A DNA stretch of 64,000 bases from Candidatus Oxydemutator sp. GTDB lineage: Bacteria; Pseudomonadota; Gammaproteobacteria; Poriferisulfidales; Oxydemutatoraceae. Each line of letters opens with the position of its first letter. Within the stretch, counting starts at the first letter, position 1. The notes beneath the pieces were generated by a model. It was not told the DNA's origin. It was given only the letters and a program-made list of their open reading frames with translations, and did no database searches. Made by a program: the position numbers and the translations under genes. The DNA lies in contig OZ241883.1 in NCBI GenBank assembly GCA_965203445.1, positions 1,664,001 to 1,728,000 of the forward strand. The letters run 5' to 3'. Positions 55,209 to 58,806 of the stretch are shown one piece after another.

Positions 55209-55242
55209 CCGCAGGCCCGTGATGTAACCCTCTCCCCCTAGG
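55209..55242 (+). repeat. 34-bp direct repeat, copy 1 (copy 2 at 56113-56146)
   Basis: ccgcaggcccgt-gatgtaa-ccctctccccctagg versus ccgcaggcccgt-aacgtag-ccctctccccctagg, 3 mismatches. Confidence 0.85.
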
Positions 55243-55936
55243 AGAGGGTGGGCCGATGTCGACGCCTCGGCAGGTAGCGCAGGTGGCTTACGTCGGCGTG
55301 CACCCGCTGGCCGCCCGGGCGCAGCACCGCGTAGCCGTACTGGTGCGCCAATGCCAGCGCGTCCCTTTGTGCGATTATGCACGCCATCGCCGGCGCCAGC
55401 GTATTGTCGTCGTATTCGCGCATGAGACGCCGAAAGTTGGGCAGCGTCCACTCGCGCATCCGCTCGACGTCCTCGCAGCGCAGTTTGTGCTTGACCTCGA
55501 TGACCGCGACGACCTCGCCGTTCATCATCAGGATGTCAAACTCGCCTTCTCGGCCGCGACGGCTGACTCTGACGTTGGCGCGGACGTACTCGAACTCCAG
55601 GTCGCCGAGGCGCGGTTCCTTGTTCAATGCCCGGAAGAAGAACTCCTCGGTGGCGCTTCCCCGGGTGTTGGTTATACCGCCGATTTCCTTGTACATTTCG
55701 CGCTTGGCTTCGGCCGCTTTCGCGATTGCTTTTTGGAGTTTTTTGTTGGCCGCCTTGTTAGCCGCCTCGGACTCGGCGTGTCGCTTATCAGCCACGGCGC
55801 GCCACGCCTCCGCTTTGGCGCGCCACTTATCCAATTCGGCGCGCCATGCATCCAATTCGGCACGCCACGCGGCCGCCTCGGCGTTGCTTTTGGCAATTTG
55901 TTCGAGACTCCGTTTTACTGATTCGAGTTCGTTCAT
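55238..55936 (-). CDS. Coiled-coil + PD-(D/E)XK nuclease-like protein, paralog 3
   Basis: WRAELD heptads; EEFF..EFDILMMNG..VIEVKHKL; homologous to 12995-13882. Confidence 0.75.
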   Translation of the reverse strand: MNELESVKRSLEQIAKSNAEAAAWRAELDAWRAELDKWRAKAEAWRAVADKRHAESEAANKAANKKLQKAIAKAAEAKREMYKEIGGITNTRGSATEEFFFRALNKEPRLGDLEFEYVRANVRVSRRGREGEFDILMMNGEVVAVIEVKHKLRCEDVERMREWTLPNFRRLMREYDDNTLAPAMACIIAQRDALALAHQYGYAVLRPGGQRVHADVSHLRYLPRRRHRPTLS

Positions 55937-56112
55937 GGCCGTCATTGTACGCCCGTACGCGCGGTGCGCAAGCGGACAAAATCGAAAATCGAGGGTAAAA
56001 ACAGCCAAGTCGTTGGCATGTTCGGCAAATAAACCTGACGAACGGTTTTGCCCGAACAGGAAACCCTGCTCCCCCTCCCAAAGGGATAGGGAGCAAGGAG
56101 TGGGAAAGAGGA

Positions 56113-56146
56113 CCGCAGGCCCGTAACGTAGCCCTCTCCCCCTAGG
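56113..56146 (+). repeat. 34-bp direct repeat, copy 2
   Basis: Matches 55209-55242. Confidence 0.85.
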
Positions 56147-56211
56147 GGAAGGCGGGCGGAACCTATGCTATTCTGGGGAATTATATACATGACACCACCA
56201 GACGAGATTGA

Positions 56212-57432
56212 ATGAAGACACACCGAACAATCAGATACCGTTTGCATCCGCAGACACGGGCCAAGGCCCGCAAGTTGGCGGGTTTGGCGGGTGCGTGCAG
56301 GTTTGCGTGGAATCATTTCGTGGGTAAGTTGCGGGATGAGTATGCCGAGGACGGCGAGCGTGATTACCGGTTTTATTCGCTTGGTAAGAGGTTCACAGCG
56401 TTGCGAAGGGATGACGCCACGTGGTTGCAGGAGTACTCCATGGCAATAGTGCGCCAGGCGTTGAAGCCGATAGAGACTGCATACAGGCAATTCTTCAAGA
56501 AGGAGGGCGGCCTGCCGAGGTTTCACGCCAAGTATGTCCGCCCGGATAGTTTCCCGTTATGCGCCGGCGCATTCCGTATGCGCGGGCGCTATCTGTACAT
56601 CGCCAAGGTTGGCGAGGTGCTGCTACTTGGCCACAATCCCTATCCGGACGGCGTGCCCAAGTCGGGCACGGTCAAGCGGGAATGCGGCAGGTGGTATGCG
56701 TATATCACGTACGAAGTGGAACAATCCGAAGCATTGAAACCTGTAAGAGAAGTCGGCATAGACCGCAACGTCGGTCAGGTAACATTATCCGACGGGACGA
56801 TGTATCGTATGCCGGATACGGCAAAACATGAACGTCGCGTCAGGCGTTATCAGAAGAAGATGGCCAGGCGTCAGAGGCCGAACCACAAGAAGGGGATCAA
56901 GGCGTCGAACCGATGGCTACGCGCACAGTTGCTTCACCAGAAGGCACAGGCCACGTTGCGACACGTCAGACGGAATTGGTGCCATGGCGTATCAAGGCAA
57001 GTAGCTGATAAATACTCCCTTGTGCACCTGGAGCAGTTGAACAATCCAGGGATGACAAGAAGCGCCAAGGGAACAAAGGAGAAACCCGGAACCAGCGTTC
57101 GCGCGAAGACCGGACTGAACCGCGTGATCCTGGCGTCATGCTGGGGCAAGTTTCACCAGTGCCTGGACTACAAGACGAATACGAATTACATAAACCCCGC
57201 ATACACAAGTCAGACGTGCAATAAATGTGGGAACGTAGATAAAGAAAACAGAAAGACGCAGGCGGCGTTTATTTGCACCGCTTGCGGTCATCGGGACAAT
57301 GCGGATGTAAATGCCGCATTGAATATATTGGCCCTCGGGAATAGGGCTGCTGGACGTGGAGGCGGCGAGGTTACTTGGCCCATGAAGCGTCAAATGGATA
57401 CACGGCACCACTTGGTGGTGTCATGTATATAA
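56212..57432 (+). CDS. tnpB: RNA-guided endonuclease TnpB
   Basis: YRLHP..GACRFAWN, LPRFH, RuvC-I GIDRN, RuvC-II HLEQL, Zn finger CNKC/CTAC, RuvC-III NADVNAALNI. Confidence 0.93.
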   Translation: MKTHRTIRYRLHPQTRAKARKLAGLAGACRFAWNHFVGKLRDEYAEDGERDYRFYSLGKRFTALRRDDATWLQEYSMAIVRQALKPIETAYRQFFKKEGGLPRFHAKYVRPDSFPLCAGAFRMRGRYLYIAKVGEVLLLGHNPYPDGVPKSGTVKRECGRWYAYITYEVEQSEALKPVREVGIDRNVGQVTLSDGTMYRMPDTAKHERRVRRYQKKMARRQRPNHKKGIKASNRWLRAQLLHQKAQATLRHVRRNWCHGVSRQVADKYSLVHLEQLNNPGMTRSAKGTKEKPGTSVRAKTGLNRVILASCWGKFHQCLDYKTNTNYINPAYTSQTCNKCGNVDKENRKTQAAFICTACGHRDNADVNAALNILALGNRAAGRGGGEVTWPMKRQMDTRHHLVVSCI

Positions 57433-57437
57433 TTCCC
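57340..57437 (+). ncRNA. Putative omegaRNA (reRNA) scaffold overlapping the tnpB 3' end; 5' limit uncertain
   Basis: Expected position for TnpB; terminal hairpin 57398-57428 (14-bp stem with one mismatch and one G-U). Confidence 0.5.
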
Positions 57438-57450
57438 CTATTCTGAAACG

Positions 57451-58806
57451 ATGTTTGATCACGTTGCCGGGCGCCTGACGGCGCTTGCCGAGCGCCTGCG
57501 CGGCGAGGTGCGGCTTACCGAGGACAATATCGCGGACACGTTGCGCGAGGTGCGCGCGGCGTTGCTCGAGGCCGACGTCGCGGTGTCGGTGGTCGGCGAT
57601 TTCATCGAGACGGTGCGCGGGCGCGCGCTCGGCGCCGAAGTGAACCGCAGTCTGACGCCCGGCCAGGCGCTGATCAAACTGGTGCGCGAGGAGTTGACCG
57701 CGCTGATGGGCGGCGCGTGTGCGACGCTCGCGCTCAACGTGCAACCGCCGGCGGTGGTGCTGCTCGCCGGCCTGCAAGGCGCCGGCAAGACGACGACCGC
57801 GGCCAAACTCGCGCTCCATCTGCGCGAAAAGAAAAAATCGGTCGCGCTGGTCAGTTGCGACGTCCATCGCCCGGCCGCGATCGAGCAGCTGGCGCAACTC
57901 GCGCGGCAGTGCGACGCCGCATGCTACCCGACCGACGCCGCGGCGCCGCCGGTGGTCGCGGCGCGCGCCGCGCTCGAACGCGCGCGCCTCGATTTTCAGG
58001 ACGTGTTGATCGTGGATACCGCGGGCCGCCTGCACGTGGACGACGCGATGATGGACGAGATCAGGGAGTTGCACGCGGCGTTGTCGCCGGTCGAGGTATT
58101 GTTCGTCGTGGACGCGATGACCGGGCAGGACGCGGTGGTCGCGGCGCGCGCCTTCGGCGAGGCGCTGCCGCTGACCGGCGTCATTCTGACCAAGGCCGAC
58201 GGCGACGCGCGCGGCGGCGCCGCGTTGTCGGTGCGCGCCGTGACCGGCAAGCCGATCAAGATGATCGGCGTCGGCGAGAAACTCGACCGGCTGGAACCGT
58301 TTTATCCGGAGCGCATAGCGTCGCGCATCCTCGGCATGGGCGAGATCGAGAGTCTGATAGATCAGATTGAGAGCAAAAGCGACGCCAAAAAGACGCGCAA
58401 ACTCGCCGCCAAGATCAAAAAGCGCAAGGGTCTCGACCTCGAGGACGTGCGCGATCAGCTGCGTCAGATGCAGGACATGGGCGGCGTCGCCGGGCTGCTC
58501 GACAAACTCCCCGCGGCGATGGTCGGCAAGGTCGCGGCCAAGGCCGATACCGCGTTTGGCGACCGCCAGACCAAGGCCATGGTGGCCGTCATAGATTCGA
58601 TGACGCCGCAGGAGCGCCGTCGCCCCGAGATCCTGAACGGCTCGCGCAAAAAACGCATAGCCGCCGGTTCCGGCACCTGTATCCAGGACGTCAACCGCGT
58701 GCTGAAGCAGCACAAGACGCTGCAAAAGACGATGAAGAAGTTCGGCCGCGGCGGCGCCCGCCAGATGATGCGCGGGCTGGGGGGAGGGCCCTTTCCCGGC
58801 CGCTGA
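57451..58806 (+). CDS. ffh: Signal recognition particle protein
   Basis: [39 protein letters not shown]. Confidence 0.97.

Follow-up and report, generated by a model that had tools for sequence, protein, structure and literature searches.

Cas12 descends from TnpB, a compact nuclease for genome editing, which is accepted to act in restoring an IS200/IS605 element that has been scarlessly excised, a role that transfers poorly to cut-and-paste DDE transposons, whose prokaryotic associations with TnpB are described in reviews as rare and unexplained. In eukaryotes, Bao and Jurka reportedly placed Fanzor1 and Fanzor2* in cut-and-paste transposons in 2013. Here we consider a bacterial element, found directly upstream of ffh in a 64,000-nucleotide stretch of Candidatus Oxydemutator sp. 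(assembly GCA_965203445.1, contig OZ241883.1, positions 1,664,001 to 1,728,000 of the forward strand; ‘the window’ in what follows, numbered from its first letter), in which a tnpB gene sits between terminal inverted repeats (TIRs) of IS1595 type, flanked by an 8-bp target-site duplication (TSD).

The closest bacterial precedent is the work of Altae-Tran et al. (2023, PNAS), whose main text describes six DDE-associated TnpB branches (DDE-1 to DDE-6), all with inverted terminal repeats, together with solo TnpBs between the same ends for which mobilisation in trans was suggested (PMC10691335). That main text names only IS630 (for DDE-6) and uses the term ‘IS1595’ 0 times (PMC10691335), whilst a 2026 review, in its account of these associations, lists ISL2, IS630 and IS1031 and calls the DDE-TnpB association rare in prokaryotes (PMC13565253). 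The general kind (DDE-associated TnpB, solo copies, movement in trans) has been in print since 2023, which makes the window element less surprising than a preliminary description of this DNA had supposed; its assumption that TIRs are foreign to tnpB elements has been overtaken by that main text, in which TnpBs with inverted ends are already linked to DDE transposases (PMC10691335). Full-text literature searches returned no description of TnpB cassettes with IS1595-type ends.

As far as the main-text description allows comparison, the published DDE-associated branches share with our locus a TnpB within inverted-repeat transposons, a tnpB 3' end near the transposon end, and solo copies that have the same ends as transposase-bearing relatives; a predicted RNA fold that contains the repeat, a flanking purine and matched inner repeats were found only here (PMC10691335). 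Fanzor1 and Fanzor2* are likewise TnpB-family nucleases in transposons with TIRs and TSDs, often non-autonomous, and their right-end element RNA (reRNA) has a scaffold that includes the TIR, with RNA running about 15 nt past the element (Yoon et al. 2023, PMC10711439, in its treatment of these RNAs); the equivalent RNA here is predicted. Fanzor is eukaryotic or viral, however, whereas the window element is bacterial, and the TSD is part of the Fanzor1 scaffold (PMC10711439, same treatment), whereas the flank signal here suggests that the guide starts with the duplicated 8-mer. IS1341-type elements (tnpB-only members of IS200/IS605) also have a single tnpB, several copies, no transposase of their own and a 3' RNA module, but with asymmetric hairpin ends, neither TIR nor TSD and a Y1-chosen target resembling a target-adjacent motif (TAM), according to the review's section on them (PMC13565253), in contrast to the TIRs, 8-bp duplication and absence of Y1 seen here. 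Finally, IS1595-family insertion sequences (ISs) have TIRs of about 25 nt, an 8-bp duplication and ends of the form GGnnATTAT, and members with a transposase and the same ends, some with cargo, reside in the same genomes; the window element differs in having no transposase and, as its cargo, an RNA-guided nuclease whose predicted RNA appears to absorb one of the repeats. We take the end consensus of the ISNwi1 group to be ggnnatTAT, a form that GGGAATTAT fits.

Results

The element at ffh is 1262 bp long (window 56176-57437). Its inverted arms, 56175-56200 and 57413-57438, are 26 nt in length and 100% complementary by both a repeat finder and the sequence itself; as the outermost G/C pair can be assigned either to the repeat or to the flank, the arms may equally be counted as 25 nt, in which case the exact direct repeat CTATTCTG follows on both sides (Table 1). 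A 21-nt segment of the arm has 2 occurrences in the window, as against 0 in 100 shuffles. Just 11 nt separate the left repeat from the tnpB ATG, the TAA stop codon at 57430-57432 falls inside the right arm, and tnpB is the only long open reading frame (ORF). No DDE transposase gene lies within the element, which is therefore at most a non-autonomous IS1595 derivative, its sole ORF being tnpB and the transposase lying elsewhere. In these respects (perfect 25-nt TIRs, exact 8-bp duplication, one intact tnpB with its stop codon in the right TIR) the preliminary description was accurate.

The encoded protein matches the Pfam domains HTH_OrfB_IS605 (PF12323), OrfB_IS605 (PF01385) and Cas12f1-like_TNB (PF07282) at cut-off, scores 212.6 bits against the NCBIfam model guided_TnpB (cut-off 100), and aligns over its full length with the solved ISDra2 TnpB (8exa/8h1j; E = 1.1e-17). 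All three RuvC acidic residues and the zinc finger reported earlier are in place: D184, E274 and D365 align with the catalytic positions of solved TnpBs, as do the two CxxC pairs C336/C339 and C355/C358 with their zinc finger, and the triad and zinc-finger residues are kept in 45-47 of the 47 clade proteins. Judged from its residues, TnpB is catalytically intact.

The genome, judged 100% complete from marker genes, consists of a single 2.38-Mb contig, and a protein search of it gave 18 TnpB matches; 13 are full-length, stop-free and 59-100% identical, the other five being partial rows from four decayed copies. Repeats starting GGGAATTATATAC, or a near variant, bound all 13 full-length copies (13/13), so that the sibling copies anticipated in the preliminary description do exist, and their duplications match at 8/8 positions in eight copies, 7/8 in two, 6/8 in two and 4/8 in one. 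The copy with the 4/8 duplication (G000:C1:970249-971503) lies 3.6 kb from another in opposite orientation (975120-976431), and its non-matching duplication suggests a rearrangement between copies. Two further cassettes have internal deletions that reduce them to 786 bp and ~510 bp but leave both ends and the 3' RNA module in place (G000:C1:248235-248387 and 2222918-2223028, 65-88 bits); such derivatives may act as stand-alone carriers of guide RNA. Miniature elements with the same ends are also present, for example at 113341-113503.

An IS1595 transposase with the same ends, likewise anticipated, was found in the same genome as its single DDE_Tnp_IS1595 match (151 bits). It belongs to a 2616-bp element (G000:C1:1978350-1980965; transposase gene 1979907-1980851) with GGGAATTATATACTTAAATCTACAAA at both ends and the 8-bp duplication ATCAGAAA on both sides; the 314-aa protein scores 205.9 bits against NCBIfam IS1595 and has the Pfam domains DDE_Tnp_IS1595 and Zn_ribbon_IS1595, and among its 120 listed protein relatives those named by their source are IS1595 family transposases. 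The outer 13 nt of the window element are identical to those of this resident element, and the duplication has the same length (8 bp). Matches to Y1_Tnp (PF01797) and Resolvase (PF00239) number zero in the complete genome, against control matches in 6/14 and 12/14 genomes; because no Y1 or serine recombinase is there, the IS1595 enzyme is the only recognisable transposase with fitting ends. As cargo, the resident element has a DNA methyltransferase that includes an HNH domain. In three genomes (resident L083/L006, L232 and L242) the IS1595 transposase elements have an N6/N4 DNA methyltransferase downstream, two with a C-terminal HNH nuclease domain; L232 (2680 bp) and L242 (2409 bp) had been considered as elements with both transposase and tnpB, and were rejected as such, their cargo being the DNA methyltransferase.

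The same architecture extends well beyond this genome. When one genome per species was scanned, 11 TnpB loci came back, the closest in sponge-type gammaproteobacterial metagenome-assembled genomes (MAGs) and one in a Caldilineaceae MAG; wherever the flanks were complete, the ends were of the same kind and the duplications 8 bp long. All five (5/5) other genomes in which TnpB relatives were first found contain IS1595 transposases, several between GGGAATTATATAC-type repeats, and the same end type surrounds transposases in G001, G002/G041, G029, G038, G039, G046, G048 and G051. Among the 53 genomes of the order, the TnpB clade (E <= 1e-60) is present in 19 (family f1 8/18, f4 10/16, f2 0/17) and PF12762 in 30; the two occur together in 18 of the 19 TnpB genomes, the PF12762 match being only a fragment in four of these and G047 being the exception, a co-occurrence that is descriptive only, related genomes not being independent.

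For a census of ends we pooled the 13 copies of the genome itself with two sets of loci from relatives, giving 54 non-duplicate elements with a repeat pair; L049, L073, L213 and L214, whose ends had been mis-set by the script, were left out, and no pair was found automatically in L072, L074, L075, L218, L219, L221, L223 and L230. The duplication is 8/8 in 29 of the 54, 7/8 in 10 and lower in 15. On inspection by eye, eight of the dropped loci and six others all have a family-type right end, with 8/8 duplications in L214, L223 and L230. In all 54, reaching down to ~40% identity and across two phyla, tnpB is flush with such ends; the architecture recurs in a deeper clade of 40-42% identity (in L290, left end GGGAATTGTATACGATAATCCGCAA and duplication CTATAAAT) and in a Chloroflexota MAG. 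This TnpB clade and IS1595-type ends are thus bound by an old, stable link and not by a one-off capture, since relatives to ~40% identity, in 19 of the 53 genomes of the order and in the Chloroflexota MAG, have the same ends; the association is no fresh capture, and close homologues, both the 13 paralogues and the wider set of 54, do carry the TIRs.

Outside the clade, the best plasmid matches are only ~34% identical and of IS200/IS605 type, the two examined having no such ends, and one of them (Xylella) adjoins a divergent IS200/IS605 Y1 tnpA. A metagenome scan with the right-end pattern proved too loose, chance matches prevailing, and among the matches listed a matching left end was seen in 0 of the 80 fetched loci. 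Just one of these 80 (again among the matches listed) encodes a TnpB relative, namely L106 (1700-3060 of a metagenome contig), 34% identical, with loosely similar ends (GGGAATTATAATACGACAGTACCCA and GGGGATGATATACGAAAGTACCCA) and no clear duplication, which may be a deeper member of the clade.

Whilst the outer 13 nt of the repeats are nearly constant across elements, positions 13-25 vary by subfamily (CATGACACCACCA in the window copy; CTAAATCTACAG, TTTAATCCGTGA and GCAAAATCCGCAA in others), and the two ends of any one element agree. Transposase-bearing ISs carry the same inner variants, with 21 of 39 cassettes matching one of ~20 sampled ISs at >=11/13 positions, the pattern to be anticipated if non-autonomous elements follow particular autonomous partners.

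In all three other genomes of the genus (G034, G035 and G036; L300-L302), a search with the 5' part of ffh recovered an empty allele, such as the preliminary description had proposed to look for: a single CTATTCTG, without element, stands 6 nt upstream of the ffh start, the sequence reading ...GTGTGCTATTCTGCGCGCC and then the ffh ATG. The duplication thus derives from the target, and the insertion is specific to the lineage of the window genome. It need not be recent, because the empty-site genomes belong to other species (ffh 81-82% identical), and so the earlier argument that perfect ends imply recent movement is not established. Assembled contigs of four sequencing runs contain no joint across the element, that is, no empty allele, these contigs being fragmentary; those of one run, from the probable source sample, span both element junctions with zero differences. 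The sequence TGCTATTCT, located 6 nt ahead of the ffh ATG in the empty alleles, resembles the extended -10 box of a leaderless ffh mRNA (window 57438-57453; L300-L302); the element is inserted inside this box-like sequence, and the right copy of the duplication restores TATTCT before ffh.

The flanks of the 39 non-duplicate cassettes with a duplication of >=7/8 carry an orientation-specific signal. At the position directly 5' of the left duplication (position -1), 25 have G, 13 A, 1 T and 0 C, giving a purine in 38/39, whilst the first base of the duplication is never G; one subfamily shows TA 5' of the target, the rest mostly G. The mirror position is not complementary, +1 being a pyrimidine in only 15/39 (Fisher, -1 purine versus +1 pyrimidine within cassettes, p = 1.2e-8). 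As a control we took 21 transposase-bearing insertions with the same end type and a duplication of >=7/8, leaving out three poor-end loci, and found a -1 purine in 13/21, and in 6/21 in the reverse orientation (cassettes versus control, p = 5.6e-4); with the AACTTGACA-type repeat only, the figures are 9/9 for TnpB cassettes and 4/10 for transposase-bearing elements. We read the flanking purine as a candidate TAM, or part of one, because a symmetric DDE transpososome should not see orientation and because the signal goes with TnpB. In the empty allele a purine stands directly 5' of the sequence that the predicted guide would match, whereas in the occupied site the C that ends the repeat stands there. 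Comparing TSDs and 5' flanks for a TAM, as had been proposed, thus uncovers a one-base, orientation-specific purine at -1, its role as a TAM being our interpretation. Two other explanations of this base, as part of a tnpB promoter or of a longer duplication, were rejected: the position is outside both hexamers, and its right-hand counterpart is always C.

Over their terminal 105-152 nt the elements show nucleotide-level conservation and similar predicted folds: a short stem closed by the loop C-GGGAAU-A; a second stem, GACGU/ACGUC, around a variable stem; the linker AAAUGGAUAC; a hairpin with the inner right repeat as its 3' arm; and a 9-nt tail AUAAUUCCC. The terminal hairpin is in the minimum-energy fold of 20/20 sequences. 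RNAalifold, applied to 16 short-type elements (of the 54) aligned with MAFFT, predicts 17 pairs, 10 with compensatory (double) changes. With a pseudoknot added between the loop GGGAAU and the terminal AUUCCC, 93.5% of cells are paired, against 79.1% in shuffles and 18-50% with a slid partner, and the covariation score is 0.395 against 0.139, with 0/500 shuffles reaching the former. Within the pseudoknot helix itself 92.7% of cells are paired, columns 12/119 changing from AU to CG in five Chloroflexota sequences; and copy e0895k has GGGAAC (a synonymous AAT->AAC change in an Asn codon) together with the right end GUUCCC, whilst GGGAAT is retained at its left end. With a covariance model derived from the alignment, 13/13 copies and the two internal-deletion derivatives are recovered at 64.8-107.5 bits. 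Rfam, run on 55900-57700 with E up to 5, returned only a chance-level Termite-leu match (17.8 bits, gathering score 51).

By analogy with published TnpB reRNAs, which form a pseudoknot with bases just 5' of the guide, and with Fanzor1 reRNAs, which include the TIR (PMC10711439, in its description of these RNAs), the guide should begin at the first base past the right repeat. We rejected a different candidate, in which the variable 5' arm of the terminal hairpin is the guide and is aimed at the element's own repeats; this arm has mismatches and indels against the left repeat in several subfamilies, and the flanking purine would be left unexplained. The inner-repeat hairpin is seen at the right end of 27/37 cassettes and at the left end of 14/37; amongst the ISs, L083, L027, L035, L232, L239 and L242 have it at one end, upstream of the transposase gene.

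Table 1. Features of the tnpB element and its insertion site, in window coordinates
Feature	Position	Strand	Basis
Candidate TAM position, purine G just 5' of the left duplication	56167..56167	+	Flank statistics; G in three empty alleles; TAM role putative
Left 8-bp target-site duplication CTATTCTG	56168..56175	.	Single-copy in the empty sites of G034, G035 and G036
Left terminal inverted repeat GGGAATTATATACATGACACCACCA	56176..56200	+	Outer 13 nt common to the genome's IS1595 element
tnpB, 406 aa; RuvC D184/E274/D365 and CxxC..CxxC zinc finger intact	56212..57432	+	ORF, Pfam, NCBIfam, alignments
Predicted omegaRNA (reRNA) scaffold	57330..57437	+	Covariation; covariance model, 107.5 bits
Scaffold stem 1	57331-57334 with 57344-57347	+	Predicted
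Stem 1 loop GGGAAT, predicted pseudoknot partner of 57432-57437 (ATTCCC)	57337..57342	+	Covariation
Scaffold stem 2	57353-57357 with 57387-57391	+	Predicted
Scaffold terminal hairpin; tail	57398-57428; 57429-57437	+	Predicted
Right terminal inverted repeat; inner part predicted as hairpin 3' arm, tip as pseudoknot partner; contains the tnpB stop codon	57413..57437	-	
Right 8-bp target-site duplication CTATTCTG	57438..57445	.	Sequence and empty alleles
Predicted omegaRNA guide: duplication and flank, into the ffh start at 57451	57438..57457	+	Assumed length; suggested by the pseudoknot position and by TnpB/Fanzor reRNAs as described in PMC10711439

Discussion

We favour, with a probability of roughly 0.8, the view that the window element belongs to a non-autonomous lineage of IS1595 type (DDE, TIR, 8-bp duplication), the sole gene of which is a catalytically intact TnpB, and for which movement in trans, an omegaRNA and a TAM can be proposed. 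The preliminary description had likewise put TnpB on a non-autonomous DDE element mobilised in trans, and the IS1595 transposase with the same ends, the 13/13 paralogues and the absence of a Y1 or serine transposase from the genome lend this support. In the mechanism that we envisage, IS1595 transposases supplied in trans would excise and insert the element. The last ~108 nt, right repeat included, would fold as the omegaRNA scaffold, with the tip AUUCCC forming a pseudoknot with the upstream GGGAAU loop, and transcription would continue into the flank, making the right-hand copy of the duplicated target the first part of the guide. The complex of TnpB and RNA might then recognise the uninterrupted (empty) allele, with the purine 5' of the duplicated 8-mer serving as at least part of the TAM, whilst the occupied site would be protected by the C in which the repeat ends; cutting of the empty allele would make it more likely that the element is copied back there (homing or retention).

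We also offer, tentatively and as a guess more apt to fail than to stand, an answer to how a TAM could be satisfied without TAM-directed insertion. The DDE transposase would ignore the TAM and hit A/T-rich 8-mers, and only those insertions with a 5' purine (TA in one subfamily), in the right orientation, would be defended by TnpB, 38/39 survivors carrying it. If true, these flanks would be a natural record of a nuclease of OMEGA type deciding which cut-and-paste insertions persist, and the element a bacterial counterpart of Fanzor1; and should the TAM truly be one purine, the demands of the nuclease on its target would be unusually loose.

Several observations weigh against this picture. The TAMs of characterised TnpBs are 4-5 nt long, and a one-base purine signal is much weaker, with a small control set of 21 sites, 8 of which belong to a single IS. 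Amongst the loci analysed, none was found with both a transposase and tnpB in one element. The inner repeat of the window copy, CATGACACCACCA, reaches only 7/13 in its best IS match, and a search of the 53 genomes of the order with its 20-nt pattern (<=3 mismatches) gave no transposase-bearing element; the pattern is present only in its own genome, two 3-mismatch matches elsewhere being chance-like, and with its inner repeat on no transposase-bearing element the window copy may now be immobile. A promoter and terminator scan of this copy returned nothing, with no sigma-70-like promoter, and the copy is without the ~45-nt left-end segment that bears a promoter-like site (TTGATT-16-TATGAT) in other subfamilies. 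Folding energies of the RNA module are weak (z-scores from -3.35 to +0.08, and only 4/20 sequences with <=2/200 shuffles folding as well), and the covariation of the pseudoknot amounts to two events only, one in a 5-sequence clade and one in e0895k. The inner-repeat hairpin is also seen in transposase-bearing ISs, at the end upstream of the transposase gene in 7/10 and at the other end in 1/10, so that its stem may go back to the IS end and have been co-opted later. None of the 11 sequencing runs listed is an RNA run containing the locus, the omegaRNA and guide being predicted only. Finally, a cut-and-paste element already leaves a break on excision, and the benefit of TnpB to it is not obvious, as argued in the review's discussion of these elements (PMC13565253).

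Some of these points are what would be expected were the cassette an IS1595-type passenger element with TnpB as plain cargo, without any part in its life cycle, in which case the RNA fold would come from the IS end and the -1 purine from the target preference of the transposase. Other IS1595 elements here do carry other cargo, the DNA methyltransferase; the terminal hairpin is shared with ISs, the purine signal is a single base set against a small control, and a DDE element gains little from a homing nuclease (PMC13565253, same discussion). We nevertheless think this unlikely, given that the catalytic triad is kept across a clade diverged to 40% identity, that stems 1 and 2 and the pseudoknot, lying in or beside the coding region, covary (with the synonymous AAT->AAC change in e0895k matched by A->G in its right end), and that the purine preference is not seen in transposase-bearing ISs in either orientation, even within the AACTTGACA type. 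More improbable still, in our estimation, is that the cassettes are moved by an enzyme other than IS1595, the resemblance of ends being convergent or due to an unrecognised transposase. The identity of the outer 13 nt with the resident element, the equal length of the duplication, the matching of inner repeats between 21/39 cassettes and transposase-bearing ISs, and the joint presence of TnpB and PF12762 in 18/19 genomes all speak for an IS1595 enzyme, whereas the absence of the window copy's inner repeat from any transposase-bearing element, the PF12762-free genome G047, and a case known from sequence alone leave this alternative its small share.

Least probable of all is an ordinary IS200/IS605-type (IS1341-like) tnpB element sitting inside a pre-existing IS1595-derived miniature element, with the repeats as an unrelated shell. 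The gene begins 11 nt from the left repeat and ends inside the right one, is flush with the ends in all 54 non-duplicate relatives, and overlaps a conserved RNA fold that pairs with the repeat tip and shows compensatory changes; no Y1 or serine transposase is present in the genome, nor was any nested element of IS605 type found; the repeat itself is used by both the stop codon and the predicted scaffold. Against this, tnpB-only IS200/IS605 elements are common (PMC10691335, main text), the nearest named relatives, at ~34% identity, are of this type, and the genome contains miniature elements that share the ends of the cassette; taken together, we consider the nested arrangement close to refuted.

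What is new here is the modelled 3' RNA fold, conserved and including the right repeat, with its last six bases predicted to pair with an upstream loop; and, from comparison of sequences, the -1 purine as a candidate TAM and the matching of inner repeats between many cassettes and IS1595 variants. The value added to the published picture lies in a resident transposase with the same ends, an empty allele, an RNA module that would absorb the repeat, and a candidate TAM that can be tested. The genome and its relatives form a dense natural data set, with dozens of intact cassettes in several end-subfamilies and probable transposases alongside.

Other features of the region

The ~45-nt left-end segment mentioned above (L008 1448-1500, compared with window 56201-56211) is missing both from the window copy and from a copy at 2.27 Mb, which form one subfamily. 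Just left of the element (window 56060-56160) are G/C-rich palindromic units (CTCCCCC...GGGGAG) that may be akin to repetitive extragenic palindromes, and a similar unit lies to the right of copy e0025k. Further upstream, at window 55800-55883, four tandem 21-nt repeats within a minus-strand ORF (55238-56008) encode a repeated AEAWRAELDKWR-like peptide.

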